Positions 24,978 to 36,040 of a stretch of 64,000 nucleotides of DNA are shown here, piece by piece. Below the pieces are notes generated by a model. The model was not told the DNA's origin. It was given only the letters and a program-made list of their open reading frames with translations, and searched no databases. The position numbers were made by a program, and so were the translations under genes. The stretch is from positions 210,417 through 274,416 of the forward strand of contig CAXXWX010000003.1 of assembly GCA_963675745.2 (NCBI GenBank), read 5' to 3'. The stretch is from Phycisphaerae bacterium. Lineage in GTDB: Bacteria; Planctomycetota; Phycisphaerae; UBA1845; Fen-1342. The stretch's first letter is position 1, and every line of letters starts with the position of its first letter.

Positions 24978-25103
24978 CTCGGCCCGGAATTGAGCCGCGC
25001 CGAGCACTGCCCGGCGCGACCACGACGCAGCTACAATGATGAAAGGGATTATTTGGTGTCCACAACTTTCGACTTGATACAACGCGCGAGCGGCGATCTG
25101 AGC

Positions 25104-28100
25104 ATGCCCGATTATCAACTCGAGCAGGACGGCAGCTACCGCATCAACCAGTATGACTCAGCCGCGGCGTTTTGCAGCTTCTTGCCCGGGATTGGTGGGC
25201 CGGCCGGCGTCCCCCTGTGGTGCATGTACGTCAACCGCGCCCAGGCGATTGTGTCTTTCGGCGTACACAACAAGGACAACGCCATCTGCGAGTACCTGCC
25301 GGCAACCTGGGCCTATCAGCTTGTCGGCATTCAGGGCTTTCGCACCTTCTGCAAGATTGACGGCAACTACTATGAGCCATTCCGCGCGCCGGCCGATGGA
25401 CGATCGGGCGCAGCGCGCGCGATGCACATTGAGCCCGATCATCTGACGCTGCGCGAAACAGCCGCACCGCACGGCCTGTCGTTCACCGTGCGCTACTTCG
25501 CCCCCGTGAACCAGCCATTGGGCACGCTTTGTCGACGATTGACCATCACGAACACCGGCGACGAAGCCAAATCGGTGGAGGCGCTCGATGGCCTGCCGCT
25601 GATCTTGCCGGCGGGATTCACCGACCATGGCATCAAGACGATGCGGCACATCCACGAGGCATATGCCGCCGTGCGACTCACTTGCGGTCACGTCCCGTTC
25701 TTCGCCTCGAAGGTCCACGCCCACGATGAAGCCGAGGTGACCGAGGTGCGGCACGGCAACTTCTACGCCGCGTGGACTGTCCGCGATGGCGGCCTGGTAC
25801 CGGTTGAGCCGTACGTCGACCCGCACGTGATCTTCGGCGGTGGGCATGACCTGATCTCACCACGGCGTTTCATTGCCGAGGATGCACTGTCGCGCGAGCA
25901 GCAGATCTGGGAGAACCGACTTCCGTGTGCCCTGGCGCCGATAAGCGCCACACTTGAACCCGGCGCCTCGATCGAGCTGGTTGCCCTGGTCGGCACCGCC
26001 CCCAGCGAGAAGCGCCTGGAGGCTTTCCTCCCACGCTATCAGCGGATCGAAGACTTGGACGCCGCGCGAGAAGAGAGCCGGCGACTGTTTGAGAGCCTTG
26101 TCACTCCCGCATTCACGGTCTCGCGGTATCCGACGTTCGATGCCTATGCGCGGCAGAATTACCTCGACAATGTACTGCGCGGCGGGCGCCCCGAGATGCT
26201 GCCGTCGCGCTCCGGGCCGACGCCGCTGTATCTCTATGCCCGGCGGCACGGTGACCTCGAGCGTGATTACAACTACTTCGTGCTCCCGCCGACGCCCCTC
26301 TCGAGCGGCGCCGGAAACTATCGCGATGTCTGCCAGAATCGACGTAGCGACGTCTGGTTCTATCCGGACCCCGACGCCACCTGCATTCGCATGTTCGTCG
26401 AATTGCTCCAGCCTGATGGCTATAACCCGCTGTCGGTCGAAGGCTATCGCTGGCGCCTCGGGCGCGACGTCGATCCGCTGCGGCACTGCCCGGCGACCGA
26501 CACCGCCGCGCGCGACGCATTCCGCACGCTGCTCGACGACACGTTTGTGCCCGGCGAACTGCTTCATTGGGCGCAGCGTTACGCAGTGCCGCTCGACCAG
26601 CCGCGGGCCTGGCTCGAACGCGTGCTCGGCGACTGCGAGCGCAGCCTGGTGGCCAACGGTCACGCCGGCGGCTACTGGATCGACCATTGGACATACATCA
26701 TCGACCTGCTCGAAGCCTTTGCGGCCGTATATCCCGACCGGGTCGAACAAATGCTCACGGGCGCGGCGGACGTTGGCTGGTTCGACGAGGGCGCGAGCGT
26801 GGCATCCCGGCACGAGAAGTACGTTCGCCGGGGTGATCAGCCGCTTCAGCTCAATGCCGTTCAAACCGGCCGCCAGGCCACCGCTGCGTTGCCGCCCACG
26901 ACAATCCTCGGCAAGCTCTGCGCGCTGGTCGCGATCAAGGCTATCAGCTTTGACTACGCCGGTCGCGGCATCGAGATGGAAGCCGGTCGCCCCGGATGGA
27001 ACGACTCGCTGAACGGCCTGCCAGGCCTGTTCGGGTCCTCCACTTGTGAGGCCGCCGAACTGACACGCCTCGCGGCCTGGCTGCGGGCGGCGCTGCCGAG
27101 CGCGCCGAATACGGAGTTACCGGTCGAAATCGCCGACCTGATCGTCGACGTTGTGGCAGACCTCAAGGCGCCAACCTATGACTGGGATCGGGCCGCGGGA
27201 TTGCGCGAGCGATGTCGCGCGCGGCTGTACGGGGCCGGCGGCGGCGAGACGCGCGTGGTCAGCGGCACGCTGCTCACCGATTTACTGGCCGGCGCTGAAA
27301 GCCGCGGACGCCGGGCGACCAAGAACTCGATCGATAGCGCGCGGGGGCTGATCCACACCTACTATGTCGGCAATCCGCAAAGCCACCCCGACGAGACCAT
27401 CGGCGGATTCGCGTCCGAGCCGTTGCCGCTCTATCTCGAGGGGCAGGTGCATTGGCTGCGCATCCAGCGCAGCGCGGACGACGCGCGCGCGATCTACCAG
27501 GCCGTCCGCAACAGCCCGCTCTTTGACCAGGCCCTGCGGATGTACAAGCTCAATGAGTGTCTCGATGGCCAACCTCCCGAGATCGGCCGGGCACGGACGT
27601 TTACGCGCGGCTGGTTCGAGAATGAGTCAATCTGGCTGCACATGAGCTATAAGTTCCTGCTCGAGTTGCTGCGAGCCGGCCTGCACGCTGAGTTCTTTGA
27701 AGACATCCGCACGATGTTCGTACCATTCATGAACCCGGAGACGTATGGGCGCAGCACGCTCGAGAACTCGTCGTTCATCGGCTCGTCGGCGAATCCCGAC
27801 CCCCACACGCACGGGCGCGGCTTCATCGCCAGACTCAGCGGTTCGACCGCCGAGTTCATTCACATGTGGTTGCTAATGACAGTCGGCCAGCGGCCCTTCC
27901 ACATTGAAAACGACACGCTCCACTTTCAGCTCGAGCCCGTTCTTCCTGGCGAGTGGTTCACCACGCAACCAGAGACGATTTCGTGGCAGGGTGAGAAGGT
28001 GGAAATCCCAGTAAACGCCTTCGCCTGCGCCCTGCTCGGAAACACGTTGCTCGTCTACCACAACCCCACCCGGGCAAACACCTTCGGCCCCAACGCCGTG

Positions 28101-28223
28101 CGGCCGGTGGATTACGTGCTCGACGGCTGTTCCTGCGAGCGACAAGCCGCGGGTCTGGCGGGCGAGCTTGCCGAACGCGTTCGCGCCCGGGCATTCACGC
28201 GCATCGACGTACACCTGGCCTGA
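25104..28223 (+). CDS. Cytoplasmic beta-1,3-glucan phosphorylase (GH161-like)
   Basis: FCSFLPGIGG..GVPLW.MYVNR.Q..SFG; GFRTF; RRHGDLERDYNYF; GNYRDVCQNRR; MEAGRPGWNDSLNGLPG; GWFENESIWLHMSYK; GRGFIARLSGSTAEF. No signal peptide. Confidence 0.8.
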   Translation: MPDYQLEQDGSYRINQYDSAAAFCSFLPGIGGPAGVPLWCMYVNRAQAIVSFGVHNKDNAICEYLPATWAYQLVGIQGFRTFCKIDGNYYEPFRAPADGRSGAARAMHIEPDHLTLRETAAPHGLSFTVRYFAPVNQPLGTLCRRLTITNTGDEAKSVEALDGLPLILPAGFTDHGIKTMRHIHEAYAAVRLTCGHVPFFASKVHAHDEAEVTEVRHGNFYAAWTVRDGGLVPVEPYVDPHVIFGGGHDLISPRRFIAEDALSREQQIWENRLPCALAPISATLEPGASIELVALVGTAPSEKRLEAFLPRYQRIEDLDAAREESRRLFESLVTPAFTVSRYPTFDAYARQNYLDNVLRGGRPEMLPSRSGPTPLYLYARRHGDLERDYNYFVLPPTPLSSGAGNYRDVCQNRRSDVWFYPDPDATCIRMFVELLQPDGYNPLSVEGYRWRLGRDVDPLRHCPATDTAARDAFRTLLDDTFVPGELLHWAQRYAVPLDQPRAWLERVLGDCERSLVANGHAGGYWIDHWTYIIDLLEAFAAVYPDRVEQMLTGAADVGWFDEGASVASRHEKYVRRGDQPLQLNAVQTGRQATAALPPTTILGKLCALVAIKAISFDYAGRGIEMEAGRPGWNDSLNGLPGLFGSSTCEAAELTRLAAWLRAALPSAPNTELPVEIADLIVDVVADLKAPTYDWDRAAGLRERCRARLYGAGGGETRVVSGTLLTDLLAGAESRGRRATKNSIDSARGLIHTYYVGNPQSHPDETIGGFASEPLPLYLEGQVHWLRIQRSADDARAIYQAVRNSPLFDQALRMYKLNECLDGQPPEIGRARTFTRGWFENESIWLHMSYKFLLELLRAGLHAEFFEDIRTMFVPFMNPETYGRSTLENSSFIGSSANPDPHTHGRGFIARLSGSTAEFIHMWLLMTVGQRPFHIENDTLHFQLEPVLPGEWFTTQPETISWQGEKVEIPVNAFACALLGNTLLVYHNPTRANTFGPNAVRPVDYVLDGCSCERQAAGLAGELAERVRARAFTRIDVHLA

Positions 28224-29350: not shown

Positions 29351-30501
29351 ACCAACCGACTGTGTACCTGGACAACAACGCGACCACGCGCGTGGACGAA
29401 GCGGCCGTCGAGGCCATGCTGCCGCTGTTTTGCGAGCAATTCGGCAATCCCGCCAGCACGCATCGAGCGGGGGCGGCCGTCGGCGCGCTGGTGGATCAGG
29501 CTCGCGCGCAGGTCGCCGACTTGCTGGGAGCGCGTCCGGGCGAGATAGTCTTCACCAGTGGCGGGACCGAGGCTGACAATGCAGCGTTGTTTGGAACGCT
29601 GGCCGCGCGCCCCACGAAGCGACACGTGATCATTTCGAGCGTCGAGCATCCGGCCATCAATGAGCCGGCTGATCGTCTCGAGCGCGAGGGGTATGAGATC
29701 ACGCGCCTGGACGTGGACAGTGATGGACACATTGATCTGGCGACCTTCGAGGCGGCGCTGCGCGACGATACCGCGCTCGTTTCCGTCATGCTGGTGAATA
29801 ACGAGACCGGGGTGGTGTTCCCGCTCGCGGATATCTCACGGATCGCCAAGGCGCGCGGCGTGCTCGTGCACACCGACGCGGTCAACGCAATTGGCAAGCA
29901 CGTTGTCAACGTTGACGAGTTGGGCGTCGATTTGCTCTCGCTGAGCGCGCACAAGCTGCACGGCCCCAAGGGCGTCGGCGCGCTGTATGTGCGCCGCGGA
30001 ACGCCGTTCGTACCGGTGATGCTCGGCGGTAAACAGGAGCGCAGCCGGCGCGGCGGCACCACCAACAGTCCCGGCATCGTCGGGTTGGGAGTTGCCTGTG
30101 AGCACGCCGCCAGCCGCGACGCCGGCCGATTGGATCGCATCAGACAACTGCGCGACCGACTCGAATCGCGGATCGCCGAGCGTTTCACCAACGCCCGCGT
30201 AATCGGCGCCGCGGCCGACCGCGTGGTCAATACAAGCTGCATCTGCTTCGCCGGCATGGCGGCCGAACCGATCGTGTTGCTGCTGAGCGAGGCGGGTATT
30301 TGCGTGTCGAGCGGTGCGGCGTGCGCCAGCGGGTCATTGGAGCCTTCACCAGTTCTGCGCGCCATGCGCATTGACCCGGAGATTGCGCAGGGGCAGATTC
30401 GCTTCTCGCTGGGCAAGCACAACACCGCTGAGGAGATCGACCGCACGCTCGACGCTTTGTCGGTCGTCATCAAAAAGGCCGCCGCCTCGAACCTGTGCTG
30501 A
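29347..30501 (+). CDS. iscS: Cysteine desulfurase (IscS/NifS group I)
   Basis: YLDNNATT; GNPAS; FTSGGTEADN; HTDAV; PLP-lysine SAHKLHGPKG; catalytic SSGAACASG. Confidence 0.92.
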   Translation: MNQPTVYLDNNATTRVDEAAVEAMLPLFCEQFGNPASTHRAGAAVGALVDQARAQVADLLGARPGEIVFTSGGTEADNAALFGTLAARPTKRHVIISSVEHPAINEPADRLEREGYEITRLDVDSDGHIDLATFEAALRDDTALVSVMLVNNETGVVFPLADISRIAKARGVLVHTDAVNAIGKHVVNVDELGVDLLSLSAHKLHGPKGVGALYVRRGTPFVPVMLGGKQERSRRGGTTNSPGIVGLGVACEHAASRDAGRLDRIRQLRDRLESRIAERFTNARVIGAAADRVVNTSCICFAGMAAEPIVLLLSEAGICVSSGAACASGSLEPSPVLRAMRIDPEIAQGQIRFSLGKHNTAEEIDRTLDALSVVIKKAAASNLC

Positions 30502-31320
30502 AAAACGTGGGCGAACGACGATTCTATTGCTCAGAGATTTCCGTCGACCGCATCACGCTGGATGCGGAGCAGTCTCGGCACGCGCTGAACAGCCTGCGTC
30601 TGAAAAGTGGGGATGCCGTCGTGGTTTTTGACGGACGCGGCCATGTCGCGCGTGGGCGGCTCGGCGGGCTATCAGATGATCCATCCCGCCGCTCCGCCGC
30701 CAAAGGTCGATTGGCGCAGGTTGATATCGAGGCGGTCGAGCATACACCGGCGGCGGCACTGTCATTGACCGTGCTGGTGGCCGGCTGCAAGGGGCCCCGG
30801 CTTGCCTGGATGGTGGAGAAGTGTACCGAATTGGGCGTTGCGCACATCGCGCTGGCGGAGTTCGTCCGCTCGACCGTCCGTGTCAGCAGCTCCCACGCCC
30901 GCAAACTGCGGCGAACCGCCGTCGAAGCTTCGAAGCAGTGCGGGCGCGTGTGGCTGCCGACCATCGAGGTGGGTATCCAGGTCGGCGACGATTGGCGAGC
31001 GCGTGGGCAACGCGGCGCTCGCCGTCGCACATCCGTGCGCCGAAGCGCAGCCTTTCGCAACCTGGCTGGATACTCGATTGCGGAACGCTATGTACCAGAG
31101 CCGACACGCGGCGGATTTGGGTGGCAATACCCCCGACTCATACGCAGTGGTAATCGGGCCCGAGGGCGGATTGACCCCCGATGAAGTCTCGGCCCTGACT
31201 TCCCTGGGGGCCACGCCGGTGCGCCTGGCGATGGATACTCTGCGCGTGGAGACGGCCGCGGTCAGCGCGGCGGCGGTGTGGGCCGCGCAAGCTGCGATAC
31301 AGCAGGCTCACCCCGAGTGA
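30495..31320 (+). pseudogene. rsmE: 16S rRNA m3U1498 methyltransferase RsmE split by a +1 frameshift near 30970-30995
   Basis: One frame has HALNSLRL, VEKCTELGV and EASKQCGR. The +1 frame has VIGPEGGLTPDE and LRVETAA. May be a sequencing error. Confidence 0.8.
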
Positions 31321-32063
31321 CCGAGGAACTCGCGCACACCCGCCCGCGATTCTTCCGTGAGGCGCATCGTGGCGCTCAGGTGGCGCGCCGTTTCAACACC
31401 CGCCCCGTGGTCCATCTGCCGAATTTCATTAAACAGGCGTTTGGTCTCGCGGACTGCGCTGGGTGGGTAGGCGGCGATGAGATCGGCGTAGTAGCGCGCT
31501 CGATCCAGCAGCGCTGTATCGGGCGCAATCTCACTGGCCAGACCGCACTGCACGGCGCGTTCGGACATGATCTTCTCGCCGGTGAGCAGCAGGTGTTTCG
31601 CGTGCCGATCACCAACCAGCCGACGCAGGTAAACCATCACGATCGCCGCCACCAGGCCCCGCTTGATCTCAGGGTAACTCGCAAACGCCGAGCTGCCGAG
31701 AATGACAATGTCACAGACAGTGATCAGTCCGGCGCCACCGGCCACCGCCGGCCCATTCACCGCCGCAATCACGGGCTTGCCGAGATTGTCGATGGTCTCA
31801 TACAACGTGAGCAGCGCCGAGGCATCGTGCGTGGCCTGCTCCGATGCGACCTCGGCGATCTCGTTGAGGTCAAGACCGGCACAAAACGCCGGCGGCGCCC
31901 CCGTGATAATCACGCACCGCACTTCCGGTTCCATGTCCGCCTGACGCAGGCGATCGGTTAGCTCGGCGATCAGCGCGCGCGACAGCGCGTTGCGACGTTC
32001 CGGGCGATTCAGCGTGAGCTCGATTGTCGCACCACGGCGGGCGATCTTGAGAGGGGTGTTCAT
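31308..32063 (-). CDS. Enoyl-CoA hydratase/crotonase (methylglutaconyl-CoA hydratase-like)
   Basis: LNRPERRNALS; AFCAGLDL; KPVIAAVNGPAVAGGAGL..CD; YPEIKRGL. Confidence 0.9.
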   Translation of the reverse strand: MNTPLKIARRGATIELTLNRPERRNALSRALIAELTDRLRQADMEPEVRCVIITGAPPAFCAGLDLNEIAEVASEQATHDASALLTLYETIDNLGKPVIAAVNGPAVAGGAGLITVCDIVILGSSAFASYPEIKRGLVAAIVMVYLRRLVGDRHAKHLLLTGEKIMSERAVQCGLASEIAPDTALLDRARYYADLIAAYPPSAVRETKRLFNEIRQMDHGAGVETARHLSATMRLTEESRAGVREFLGHSG

Positions 32064-32491
32064 GATGCACCTCCGTTGCGCGCCGGACTGCCCTGCTCTC
32101 CGCAAGTAGCGGGCAGCGCCTTGTGACCGTAGAGCACCTCTCCGTTGGGGCGTTCAGCTCCCAAGCGGCGAAACACGAGGCGAACCAGAAGACCAGCGCA
32201 CAGGTTCGACGGCTGGCAGTCAGTGATCTCGCACACCAACCGGGCGCCGCAATCGGTTGCCACTATGCCGACGGCCCGTGGCGCCGTATCGGCCTCGCGG
32301 CCGCGGCACTGTTGGATCGTATATGCCAGCAACCTCCCAGTCAGCGCCAGGCGGTGGAGTTCTGTCCGGCGCCGGCCGCAGTAACGGCAGATGCCGAACG
32401 GCGGGTACATGATGCGGCCACAGTCGGTGCAGCGCGTCGCCTCCAGTCGATAGCGCTGTGGTATTTGCCGCCGCTGGCGATCACCGGTCAT
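32060..32491 (-). CDS. DUF35 Zn-ribbon/OB-fold protein (ChsH2/PhlB-like)
   Basis: RYRLEATRCTDCG..YPP..ICRYCG; G.LLAYTI; VRLVFRR; YGHK. ATGA overlaps on both sides. Confidence 0.85.
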   Translation of the reverse strand: MTGDRQRRQIPQRYRLEATRCTDCGRIMYPPFGICRYCGRRRTELHRLALTGRLLAYTIQQCRGREADTAPRAVGIVATDCGARLVCEITDCQPSNLCAGLLVRLVFRRLGAERPNGEVLYGHKALPATCGEQGSPARNGGAS

Positions 32492-33657
32492 GGCTGGTTC
32501 CACTCCGCGCTGAGAATCGTCACCACGGCGCTGGCGCCGGTGCCGCCGATGCAGTGGGCCAGCGCGTTTCGCGCATGAGACACCTGTATGGGCCCGGCCT
32601 GCTGCCGGAGCTGTTGCCCGAGTAACACAATCTGGGCCACGCCGCTGGCCGCCAGCGGGTGCCCGCGTGCCAGCAACCCCCCGGAAGGATTGATCGGCCG
32701 CGAGCCTTCGATCGCGGTCAGGCCGTCGGCCGCCGCCGGCCCGCCCTGGCCTGGTGCGAAGAAACCCAGTGCCTCAGTGGCGCGGACCTCCGCGATCGTG
32801 TACACATCGTGAACCTCGGCCACGTCGATATCGCCGGCAGTCAATCCCGCGGCATCATAGGCACGCCGGGCGGCGCTGCGTGTCGCGCGGCACACGGACC
32901 AGTCGTCACGCTCGTGGAATGCAAGCCGCTCGCAGGCCACACCGATTCCCGCCAGCCGCACCCACGGCGCGGCGCGCAACTTCCGCGCGCGCTCCAGCGT
33001 GGTAACCAGCACCGCGGCCGCCCCATCGCAAACTGTCGCCGCATCAAGCGTGTGCAGCGGATCGGCCAGCATGGGCGAGTCCAGCACTTCATGGCGTGTG
33101 ACGCGCCGTCGATTAAACGCGTATTCGTCGTGGATGGCATTCGTGTGGTTCTTCTCGGCGATCGCCGCAAGTTGTGCCGGTGTGGTGCCGTGGCGTTCCA
33201 TATGCTCGCGCGCCATCATCGCAAAGACAGCGGCGTGCGACGCCCCGCGCTCGACCTCGTACTCCTGGTCCAGCGTCGCCGACAACGGATCGCTCAGCGA
33301 TTCGTCATCCACGTCGGTCACCTTCTCCACGCCGATCGCCAGGGCGGCCTCCACTTGTCCGCTGGCGACATCCAGCCACGCCGCGCGCACAGCCAGCGCA
33401 CCAGACGCATCAGCCGATTCGACGCGCCCCGAGGGAATCGATCCGAGCCCCATGTGGGATGCGATCAGCGGTCCCAGGTGCTCTTGCCCGGTGAGCAATC
33501 CGGATTGGGCGCAGCCCACCCAGAGCGTGTCAACCGCCGCCAGGCCGGCATCGTCCAGGGCGGCCACCGCAGCGGCGGAGGCCAGCTCGCGCAGCGACAT
33601 GCAGACCTGCCACCCGAACGGAACAATGCCGATCCCAGCTATCGCGGCCTCACGCAT
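32488..33657 (-). CDS. SCP2/archaeal-type thiolase-fold protein with the nucleophilic Cys replaced by Asp
   Basis: VESADASG (canonical VExACASG); GVEK; KNH.N; CDGAAA; EVHDVYT; NPSGGL.ARGHP. Confidence 0.88.
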   Translation of the reverse strand: MREAAIAGIGIVPFGWQVCMSLRELASAAAVAALDDAGLAAVDTLWVGCAQSGLLTGQEHLGPLIASHMGLGSIPSGRVESADASGALAVRAAWLDVASGQVEAALAIGVEKVTDVDDESLSDPLSATLDQEYEVERGASHAAVFAMMAREHMERHGTTPAQLAAIAEKNHTNAIHDEYAFNRRRVTRHEVLDSPMLADPLHTLDAATVCDGAAAVLVTTLERARKLRAAPWVRLAGIGVACERLAFHERDDWSVCRATRSAARRAYDAAGLTAGDIDVAEVHDVYTIAEVRATEALGFFAPGQGGPAAADGLTAIEGSRPINPSGGLLARGHPLAASGVAQIVLLGQQLRQQAGPIQVSHARNALAHCIGGTGASAVVTILSAEWNQP

Positions 33658-33667
33658 TGTGGCCTCG

Positions 33668-34672
33668 CTACGAAGTCCGCGCCGATTGCGCCGCTTGATC
33701 GGAGCGGCCTGACCTGTCGCCGGTCAGAGCGGCGCGTTTGCTCGCCATCGCCGCGCGCAGTGATTCGATGCGCGGCCGTATTGTCACTGCACGCGCCTGC
33801 GCTGCGGTGATCTGTTCAGTCGTGGTGATCACCAGGGCATCAGCCCCACTGCGCGCATCTGAGGCGCAGATCAACAAGCGTCCCGCGGGCTTGGCCACGT
33901 CGAGCAGCGCGGCCAGGCTCACTAATGGGAACGCCGGGTTGGATGGCTCCATGAGGGGATCGAGAAACCGGGCGGCAAGCTGCGTTCCACCAAACCCCAG
34001 CGTCGGCCCCGCCTCCAGTAGAGGCTCGACGTCAACCGGGGTGAACGCGGCGTGTGCGAAATCCGCCGGACTGAAACGCCGGCGTGTCATGATGTCGCGG
34101 CCAAGCCGCAGCATGGCGTCCAGGCGCGCATCAACGCGGGCGGACGCCTCTTCCTGCGATGCGCCCAACGTGTGCGTCGCGTCGGGCGCCGCCGATGCGT
34201 CGCGGAGATATTCCTGATCGTTGACGCGCGCAATCATCCGATCCTCGGCACGCGTGATGACAAACGCCGCGGCACCGCACAATCGTCCCTCGGGGCCTGT
34301 GTGCCGGCGATCCGGCGCGTCGGCGACAACCATCAGCCCCAGATTAACCGCGCTGGGCTTGACGATGTTACATACGGCGAAGAACACCTCCACACCGCTG
34401 CGCGAATCGGCCTGCACATCCGCGCAATGACAACGCGCCGAGACACCCAGCACGTCTGCCAGCGCCGGAGCGACGATGTGCGGGCCACGCCGCCCGGGCG
34501 CTGCGCCAACGTAGAGCGCTCCGATGCCATCGGCCGCCTCAATCTCAGCATGGGCCAGCGCATGACGCGCCGCCTCCACCGCCATGGTCAGTTGATCCTG
34601 GTCATCCGCCGGTGATCCATCATCCGGCGTGCCGCGGCAGACGTGACAGCCGTAACCGAGTATTCCAATCAT
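33668..34672 (-). CDS. Degenerate HMG-CoA synthase-like (PhlA-like) protein
   Basis: MIGILGYG; DQDQLTMAVEAA; GALYVG; GAAAFVI; GADAL. Catalytic loop reads ADVQADSRSG, without Cys. Confidence 0.7.
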   Translation of the reverse strand: MIGILGYGCHVCRGTPDDGSPADDQDQLTMAVEAARHALAHAEIEAADGIGALYVGAAPGRRGPHIVAPALADVLGVSARCHCADVQADSRSGVEVFFAVCNIVKPSAVNLGLMVVADAPDRRHTGPEGRLCGAAAFVITRAEDRMIARVNDQEYLRDASAAPDATHTLGASQEEASARVDARLDAMLRLGRDIMTRRRFSPADFAHAAFTPVDVEPLLEAGPTLGFGGTQLAARFLDPLMEPSNPAFPLVSLAALLDVAKPAGRLLICASDARSGADALVITTTEQITAAQARAVTIRPRIESLRAAMASKRAALTGDRSGRSDQAAQSARTS

Positions 34673-34795
34673 CCTCACCCCACAGTGGAGCGGCGTCCGA
34701 CCGCACGCCGCGCCCAATTCCCATCCTGGTGGTGGTAGCTTTCGCCAAACATGAAGGAATGTCAACCACCAGTCCGTGGCGCCCGATGTTACGAC

Positions 34796-36040
34796 TCAGC
34801 GTGCAAGCAACGCGCGCGCGGCGGATAGCGCTTCGGCGCGCGTCGTGACCTCCTCGTCCAATTGTCGCGTGTAGATATCATCCAACACGCGTTTGAAAAC
34901 CGGTCCAGGCGCAACGCCGATGGCCAACAGATCGCTGCCGGTGACCAGCGGCGGCGGCGCGATGCGCTCCGCGGGAATGGAATCGATACGCCGACTCAGG
35001 ATTCGGCTTCGCTCGGCCCCATCGCACATGTCCGCATAGCGCGCTCTCGCCCAGGCGCGCAACGCGCCGAACGACGCCACTGATAGCAAACGCTTGAGCG
35101 CCGCCAGCGAGATGTCCGCCGGCGCATCAAGCGTGCTCTGGTTCTCAACCAGCCAGGTGACGGCCACGCGCCGAGCATTGGAGCAGGCGAGCCGCCGGCA
35201 AATATCGTCAACTTCACGCGGCGGCCGATCGCCCAGCAGTACCGCCCAGGACAGCTCGAAGCCCGCGTTTTCAGGTAGCCGGGCGATCAACGTCAACGCA
35301 CGCGCCAGCGCCTCATCAACCCACGTCGCGCCGGGCCAGAGATGTTCGAGCAACCCCGTATCCCGCAGCAGCCCGATCGCGGCGCAGCGATGCGGATGGC
35401 GGAGCATGCGGTCGAGCTCGTCGTGGATGCGCTCGGGCGCAACCTTGCTCAGACTACTGCGCGCGTCGTACATCGCCGTGCGGGTCTCCGGTTCGATCTC
35501 GAAGTCAAGCCGAGCCGAGAAACGCACCGCGCGCAGCAACCGCAGATAGTCCTCACCAAAACGCTTCGCCGGCTGTCCGATCGCGCGGATGCAGCCCGCC
35601 TGCAAATCGCGGCGCCCCCCCACATAGTCAATCACGCGCTGTTCGAGTGGGTCGAGAAACATCCCGTTAATCGTGAAGTCGCGGCGCTGCGCGTCTTGCT
35701 CGGCATCGCAATACGTCACGCTTGCCGGCCGGCGACCGTCGTGGTACTCGCCATCCGAGCGAAACGTGGCTACCTCGACCCAGCGGCCGCGCCGGCGCAC
35801 CAGCACCACGCCGAACTGAGCGCCCACCCGGCGGGTGGCGCGGAACAATTCGCACACACGCTCGGGCCGCGCGTCGGTTGCCACGTCGAAATCGTGCGGG
35901 GTCTCGTTGCGCAGCAGATCACGAACGCACCCGCCGGCGAGCAGGGCCACATGCCCCGCGGCGTGCAACGCGCGCACAATCTCCATCGCCGGCTCAGCAT
36001 CCGCCGGCAGCGTCTTGTTGATTGTGGCAAAATCACCCAT
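34796..36040 (-). CDS. CCA tRNA nucleotidyltransferase / poly(A) polymerase family
   Basis: AGGCVRD; DFDVAT; EVATFRSD; RRDFTING; EDYLRLLRAVRF; ERI.DEL. Confidence 0.92.
   Translation of the reverse strand: MGDFATINKTLPADAEPAMEIVRALHAAGHVALLAGGCVRDLLRNETPHDFDVATDARPERVCELFRATRRVGAQFGVVLVRRRGRWVEVATFRSDGEYHDGRRPASVTYCDAEQDAQRRDFTINGMFLDPLEQRVIDYVGGRRDLQAGCIRAIGQPAKRFGEDYLRLLRAVRFSARLDFEIEPETRTAMYDARSSLSKVAPERIHDELDRMLRHPHRCAAIGLLRDTGLLEHLWPGATWVDEALARALTLIARLPENAGFELSWAVLLGDRPPREVDDICRRLACSNARRVAVTWLVENQSTLDAPADISLAALKRLLSVASFGALRAWARARYADMCDGAERSRILSRRIDSIPAERIAPPPLVTGSDLLAIGVAPGPVFKRVLDDIYTRQLDEEVTTRAEALSAARALLAR

Follow-up and report, generated by a model that had tools for sequence, protein, structure and literature searches.

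The stretch of DNA analysed here (the window) comprises 64,000 nucleotides of a Phycisphaerae bacterium (assembly GCA_963675745.2, contig CAXXWX010000003.1, positions 210,417 to 274,416) and carries, at 31308-34672, four co-directional open reading frames (ORFs) for a protein related to 3-hydroxy-3-methylglutaryl-CoA (HMG-CoA) synthase (HMGS), a thiolase, a DUF35 protein and a crotonase, the last three joined by ATGA overlaps (Table 1). These ORFs and their family matches bear out the four-gene operon that an earlier note had proposed, and gene order, Pfam and structure matches agree with its comparison of the first three genes (the trio) to the archaeal thiolase-HMGS-DUF35 complex. Both condensing subunits have lost their catalytic residues, and we refer to the degenerate copies as HMGS*, THL* and DUF35*, to the window genome as G000 and to the other three genomes of the same genus as G001, G002 and G003. 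The upstream cca gene is the probable head of the operon; a promoter and terminator scan gave signal at chance level. Run X1, which may be the source sample, yielded an independently assembled contig that extends over 30506-34898 and shows zero differences within the operon, so the substitutions that replace the cysteines are not assembly errors.

Table 1. The operon and its upstream gene, in window coordinates
Feature	Position	Strand	Description
cca (CCA-adding/poly(A)-polymerase family)	34796-36040	minus	directly upstream of HMGS* in 4/4 genus genomes
HMGS-like (HMGS*)	33668-34672	minus	334 aa; archaeal-type HMGS fold
Motif NIVKPSAV in HMGS*, residues 102-109	34346-34369	minus	clade-specific; end of central helix and next loop
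Thiolase (THL*)	32488-33657	minus	389 aa; SCP2/archaeal-type; Pfam thiolase
DUF35 (zinc ribbon and OB fold)	32060-32491	minus	143 aa; Pfam zf-ChsH2 and OB_ChsH2_C
Crotonase	31308-32063	minus	251 aa; Pfam ECH_1

In HMGS*, which matches the NCBIfam HMGS model PRK04262 at E 5.6e-31 (under its cut-off), the Glu-Cys-His-Asn tetrad of the active site reads Ala/Ser/Thr/Pro, and the alignment shows the further loss of the TPDFW loop and about 23 lid residues. For the segment ADVQADSRSG, the loss of the cysteine claimed earlier stands, but not the placing of Asp at the nucleophile position, which is occupied by Ser90 (TCG, 34403-34405); the adjacent Asp aligns to the Ala of FAC. Substitution of the tetrad abolishes HMG-CoA formation, according to the text of section 10 of PMC12960953. 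An AlphaFold model of HMGS* (pLDDT 87) finds as its fold matches, in this order, the HMGS of 6ET9/6ESQ (E 1.6e-25, TM 0.78), PhlA and MucA; as live homologs were present in the alignment that fed the model, this shows compatibility with the fold and does not prove it.

The thiolase has likewise lost catalytic residues. Asp83 (GAT, 33409-33411), in the segment VESADASG, takes the place of a Cys present in 58 of 58 live homologs in the alignment, confirming the earlier observation, and the ancestral HDCF motif (found in 116 of 119 homologs) reads HDVY, with Val285 in place of the second cysteine. His283 and His333 are kept, as had been pointed out, and both His persist in all three degenerate copies, although their retention is simply ancestral. 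Beyond this the three copies have diverged in their own ways: the nucleophile position is Asp in the window, Gly in G001 and Glu in G003 (the last from an ungapped alignment and ambiguous, since shifting by one residue could bring a nearby Cys into register), so that the Asp is not even conserved within the genus; the third residue of HDxF is V, C or A, G001 retaining HDCF; position 369, Asn in 57 of 58 homologs, is Cys in the window (N369C), Ser in G001 and Asp in G003; and the substrate-loop motifs TFPGLY, CSPITDG and QNMGG have been lost differently in each copy. K329L is the only replacement common to all three dead thiolases. Alternative active-site cysteines in THL* were judged by alignment alone. 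THL* groups with the live thiolases of the family (split support 0.994), the four zinc cysteines of DUF35 are kept in all three degenerate copies, and the window crotonase, which reaches no family cut-off, keeps its single catalytic Glu (PEIKRG).

An HMGS-like match was found in 8 of 72 genomes of the family, namely the four genus genomes, where it is degenerate, and G007, G024, G031 and G093, where it is live. An open HMGS* lies behind cca in all four genus genomes, but the four-gene order that had been proposed as a test is kept only in G000 and G001: in G003 HMGS* is followed by a thiolase that is more eroded, DUF35 and then purE, and in G002 HMGS* stands alone as the last gene, facing a convergent gene and with its frame open. 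No thiolase or DUF35 of the trio type was found in G002, and no live HMGS copy in G002 or G003 (94% and 97% complete; G000 is 91% complete, with 6% contamination). The dead type was found outside this genus in none of 279 genomes of the order, and a class-wide sample of 401 genomes added none; a genome-collection scan for dead HMGS returned two genus members already in our set, two scans of metagenome contigs returned no new dead-clade locus (none of the 22 loci from one scan was recognised as dead type), and an ESM Atlas search returned generic HMGS/KAS-III-like clusters only.

We collected 17 dead HMGS proteins, from about 12 lineages, by searching cluster representatives with a profile and then running a follow-up search. 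They were compared with 57 further HMGS proteins, of which 5 came from loci and the remaining 52 were chosen by eye, for full length and without regard to catalytic state, among 63 hits outside the clade. The dead proteins retain the tetrad Glu, Cys and Asn in 0/17 cases each and the His in 2/17, whereas each residue is present in 57/57 of the live set. Conversely, 14 of the 17 dead proteins, and none of the 57 live ones, contain the motif N[LI][VI][KR][PT]S. The three without it (P0136, P0137 and P0139) form a separate branch, two of them retaining the ancestral YCQV and the lid, and look like intermediates. The motif is the most conserved 8-residue segment of the dead clade, with an identity of 0.76 among 9 non-redundant dead sequences versus 0.40 among 21 live representatives, while whole-protein identity in the same sequences runs the opposite way (0.375 versus 0.562); column shuffles matched this contrast in 4 of 5000 cases. 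At positions near-invariant in live HMGS, the dead clade has retained 30 residues, mostly Gly, Asp and Ala, and lost 68. In the secondary structure of the AlphaFold model, the motif ends the central helix of HMGS*, a position that, by analogy with thiolase-fold structures, would face the dimer partner. In trees built with FastTree, the dead HMGS clade has no firm position beside the live copies of the family.

Among the genus members, four-fold degenerate sites are at or near saturation, second codon positions are not, and every frame is open. HMGS* of G000 and G001 agrees at 0.40 of four-fold sites (chance 0.33) and at 0.63 of second positions (chance 0.26). Identity between these two genomes is 44% for HMGS*, 41% for DUF35*, 49% for the crotonase and 58% for cca; THL*, represented in this comparison by two contig-end fragments with the middle missing, is 59% and 66% identical and has thus diverged no faster than cca. 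Live thiolase orthologs of different genera are 75-81% identical. Under a neutral null of substitutions only, at 1 substitution per site, identity falls to about 18%, and frames stay open in 1/2000 simulations for HMGS, 3/2000 for the thiolase and 110/2000 for the short DUF35. From the codon tests and the retained zinc ligands, we conclude that the HMGS*, THL* and DUF35* proteins are still constrained to fold, under relaxed constraint. The earlier note had also considered a copy decaying beside close orthologs that retain Cys; such live orthologs do exist in other genera, but selection persists within the genus.

The crotonase is independent of the trio. Its orthologs are present in most family genomes, often in the arrangement cca-(one gene)-crotonase-transaldolase without a trio, and in 20 of the 22 cases where cca and crotonase share a contig, the two have the same orientation, are no more than 1 kb apart and lack a trio. 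In 29 of 51 orthologs the catalytic Glu is present, and the 22 that lack it form one clade (support 0.999) that includes G001. HMG-CoA lyase (the query passes the family cut-off; other hits are 38-65% identical) is encoded in 22 of the 25 genomes that have a Glu-bearing crotonase but no trio, in 2 of 22 with a Glu-less one, in 0 of 4 live-trio genomes and in 1 of 4 dead-module genomes, namely G002, kin among these genomes not being independent. Because co-occurrence with the lyase or a live trio splits by the presence of the Glu (25/29 Glu-bearing versus 2/22 Glu-less crotonases), the crotonase goes hand in hand with HMG-CoA metabolism and, once that metabolism has disappeared, tends to persist without its Glu. 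Among the four exceptions is G000, where the Glu is kept and no lyase was found, although in a genome of this completeness the lyase may be unassembled. Given its co-occurrence with HMG-CoA enzymes, the crotonase is probably of the methylglutaconyl-CoA hydratase (LiuC/AUH) type. In the Glu-less clade (L175-L194, L140 and L020) PEIKRG is replaced by PG[IV]xxG and the AGLDL loop is kept; these proteins may be a second long-lived pseudoenzyme from the same locus or an oxyanion-hole-only enzyme. HMG-CoA reductase (PF00368) was found in 0 of 10 genomes tested, carriers of live copies included (controls positive in 5/14), and Dxr is present in 4 of 5 genomes, in line with the earlier view that mevalonate synthesis is not the role of the operon. 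In other families, genes for biotin carboxylase and carboxyltransferase come next in the live operons.

With the archaeal-type complex the window trio shares three adjacent genes, their folds (thiolase match E 1.9e-65) and an intact zinc ribbon. It lacks the HMGS tetrad and lid and both thiolase cysteines, keeps the His of HDxF and GHx (x = V, F = Y), has a crotonase attached and belongs to a genome without HMG-CoA reductase. Bacterial trios with an HMGS that, as in the window, lacks the Glu-Cys-His-Asn tetrad are described, in portions of PMC6392133 and PMC12960953, for PhlABC (PpATase), MucABC (SmaATase) and PfACAT/HMGS-DUF35; in PhlABC and MucABC the tetrad-less HMGS is non-catalytic but needed for assembly, and the thiolase keeps its Cys and does the chemistry. 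In PhlABC/MucABC the thiolase keeps the Cys and loses HDxF, whereas THL* has lost the Cys and kept the HDxF His. Unlike in these complexes, HMGS* can persist without thiolase or DUF35. Because the thiolase Cys is gone and HMGS* stands alone in G002, a PhlA-like scaffold role cannot be the whole story. PMC12960953 mined 1,030 bacterial trio clusters. A literature search retrieved no report of a trio with both HMGS and thiolase dead (most subscription journals and the supplementary cluster list of PMC12960953 were outside its scope).

Our preferred reading, to which we give a probability of roughly 55%, is that the operon encodes an HMG-CoA-forming complex that is now dead and has been kept as a non-catalytic module with HMGS* at its centre. 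It descends from a live unit of HMGS, thiolase, DUF35 and crotonase that occupied the cca...transaldolase locus in this Phycisphaerae family. That unit may have built HMG-CoA out of acetyl-CoA and then dehydrated the product, as part of a non-mevalonate route of the isovaleryl-CoA type. Such a route would resemble the alternative isovaleryl-CoA biosynthesis (AIB) route of Myxococcus xanthus (MvaS, LiuC, AibAB and AibC, as outlined in sections of PMC5389471), in that the live relatives combine HMGS and crotonase (with biotin carboxylase and carboxyltransferase in other families) without HMG-CoA reductase; the likeness would extend to the ancestral live operon only, since the window copy cannot form HMG-CoA. 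In the genus ancestor both condensing subunits, judging by their residues, lost their chemistry. HMGS* acquired conserved arginines (positions 141, 157, 192, 197 and 199) and, where its central helix ends, a patch specific to the clade, and it can persist alone. On this reading HMGS* would be a pseudoenzyme whose task is binding and not catalysis; it would most likely form a homodimer and bind either acyl-CoA or a protein partner. THL* and DUF35* would have been inherited with it as structural partners, on which constraint is relaxing and without which some species can do. A trio with these residues would not be expected to carry out any C-C bond chemistry.

Several observations weigh against this reading. 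HMGS* is only 34-44% identical within the genus, versus 82-85% between genera for live HMGS, so the dead copies evolve faster, and they drift to Gly, Ala, Arg and Pro, which is also expected under slow decay. The absence of an HMGS-like match from 64 of the 72 family genomes makes the module dispensable, and only 4 of the 17 dead HMGS proteins come with a known gene neighbourhood. The dead clade is monophyletic with a support of 100, to which long-branch attraction may contribute.

A more tentative possibility is that HMGS* is a neofunctionalised, free-standing pseudoenzyme that has exchanged its active site for a new conserved surface, made up of the NLVKPS motif and an arginine patch. This surface would bind one particular partner that is not part of the trio, such as an active 3-ketoacyl-ACP synthase III (KAS III)/thiolase-fold enzyme or a nucleic-acid-processing neighbour; alternatively, HMGS* would sense acyl-CoA. 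Cleavage of HMG-CoA without a Cys by the His/His thiolase makes up a lesser share of the same possibility. An HMGS*-FabH heterodimer is conjectural, drawn from a likeness; FabH is present in 5 of 5 genomes checked. A functional link between HMGS* and cca drawn from adjacency alone was rejected, the adjacency being ancestral, as was AtuA as a partner of HMGS*, AtuA occurring in 1 of 72 family genomes. That genome, G007, has AtuA (PF07287) after cca (L195:9800-11155) and a small AtuA ferredoxin-like gene (L022:10114-10422) between DUF35 and crotonase; similar AtuA-type genes stand beside live trios in two metagenome loci (L072, L073).

We consider it doubtful that the genes are passengers in slow decay inside an essential cca...transaldolase transcript, translated whether needed or not. 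In that case selection would merely preserve open frames, to avoid polarity, and foldable products, to avoid aggregation, until the genes are deleted, and the genes would serve no function of their own. The graded gene loss across the genus fits this explanation, as do the 20 of 22 cases in which cca and crotonase have stayed together without a trio, the retention in HMGS of mostly Gly/Asp/Ala core residues, and the like fate of the crotonase, in which 20 of the 22 orthologs that lost the Glu lack both lyase and live trio. Decay leaves unexplained, however, a newly gained motif that is more conserved than the core, an HMGS* that in G002 is still open although it is the last gene and faces a convergent one, and a THL* that between G000 and G001 diverges no faster than cca.

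The model of the earlier note, in which THL* and DUF35 form a Cys-less retro-aldolase that acts after the crotonase (for example, replacing HMG-CoA lyase) and HMGS* is a PhlA-like scaffold, is unlikely. THL* does share with the steroid side-chain aldolases Ltp2 and Sal (PDB 6OK1, 9MYR) a Cys-less SCP2-thiolase fold, a DUF35 neighbour and a hydratase nearby. The best point in favour of the model is that G000 has a Glu-bearing crotonase without HMG-CoA lyase, unlike 22 of the 25 trio-less genomes; besides, the sole lyase-bearing genus member, G002, is the one that lost THL*, the G001 copy, with Gly at the nucleophile and HDCF kept, is partly Sal-like, and both His are retained throughout. The catalytic residues themselves do not match: PMC12329534 gives, in the part on these enzymes, Tyr294 (YDHF) and Tyr344 for Ltp2 and Tyr302 and Cys304 for Sal, and in a bridge alignment to 6OK1 via L012 of G005 both Ltp2 Tyr correspond to His283 and His333 of THL* and the Sal acid Cys304 to Val285, leaving the window protein with neither the Tyr base nor a Tyr/Cys acid, without a YDHF/YDCY motif and without the second Tyr. 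THL* is also far closer to archaeal-type thiolases (7YVY, E 1.5e-82) than to Ltp2 (6OK1, E 1.3e-20), and its hydratase is a crotonase, whereas the one beside Ltp2/Sal is of the MaoC type (the MaoC domain of Shy). The third HDxF residue, moreover, differs in each copy, G001 has a well-constrained THL* beside a Glu-less crotonase, and G003 has a Cys-less thiolase but no crotonase that we could find. In G000, two queries detected no methylcrotonyl-CoA-type carboxyltransferase outside the end of contig C16 (see below), and the missing lyase may reflect its 91% completeness. G005 encodes, next to a DUF35 gene, a Sal-like protein of thiolase fold (L012:1501-2595) whose motifs read YDCF and AEGY and which would be a better aldolase candidate than the window thiolase.

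Some other new chemistry in THL* is less probable again, whether as a decarboxylase with a His/His oxyanion hole, through Asp83 as an anhydride-forming nucleophile or through Cys369 at the classical CxG acid/base site. The retention of H283 and H333 is compatible with it, and the window copy has HCIGG at its C-terminal loop, which resembles the CxG motif of classical thiolases. Asp83 and Cys369 are, on the other hand, private to the window species, and the substrate-loop motifs were lost differently in each copy. A Cys-less thiolase-like protein, TbSLP, slowly decarboxylates malonyl-CoA (PMC12329534, in the portion on this protein).

A second, intact HMGS-THL-DUF35-crotonase operon lies on contig C16 of G000, within a compositionally foreign 87-kb contig end (C16:200000-287260) that follows group II intron reverse transcriptase/insertion sequence-like mobile-element genes. 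This end holds second copies of housekeeping genes, 42-66% identical (their names are presumed from sequence), and the operon continues with a carboxylase and groups with families f7/f2. Because of the foreign composition, the housekeeping duplicates and the grouping with other families, the intact operon is most likely a chimeric join and not a native paralog. HMGS* as a regulator of this paralog was rejected, the C16 copy being probably chimeric and G002 and G003 having no live copy. The same facts bear on the last alternative, an artefact or a recent pseudogene made redundant by the C16 copy, which is largely refuted, since the operon sequence is identical in the independently assembled contig and the divergence is ancient. 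A hydrogenase-like block at C16:186400-193300 is 100% identical to the start of C2, suggesting assembly overlap or duplication.

Other features of the locus complete the picture. In many family members the slot directly after cca is taken by a lipoprotein-like ORF of 165-250 codons (L147, L153, L158-L160, L162, L165, L167, L169, L171, L173, L174 and L140), which we presume resembles the SecD periplasmic head domain. A gene that we take from its sequence to be RsmE-like (window 30495-31320, plus strand) appears frameshifted at about 30989-30991; because the contigs of runs X1 and X2 are each one base shorter there, the frameshift is probably an assembly error in the window. A 1077-aa ORF 3' of an ABC sugar transporter (24990-28223, plus strand) has no Pfam match and is possibly, as a guess, glycoside phosphorylase-like. 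The segment 36292-45919 (plus strand) presumably encodes, going by sequence, a Fur/PerR-like regulator, a ferritin, a rubredoxin-like protein and a peroxiredoxin, followed by an alternative-complex-III-like cluster.

A dead HMGS beside a live thiolase was known already from PhlA and MucA; what is new here, if narrowly distributed, is that both are dead and yet the genes are retained. The Joint Genome Institute (JGI) labels several dead-clade proteins HMG-CoA synthase, an annotation to be treated with caution. In the published route of repurposing, a dead HMGS combined with a live thiolase gave rise to Friedel-Crafts acylases, whereas this lineage lost both activities and keeps the genes. If HMGS* were indeed neofunctionalised, the HMGS fold would here be independent both of its own chemistry and of a live thiolase. 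The natural series within this family, from live complex through intermediate to HMGS alone, makes it testable whether long-lived bacterial pseudoenzymes are kept for a new job or by membership of an essential operon and the need to fold.

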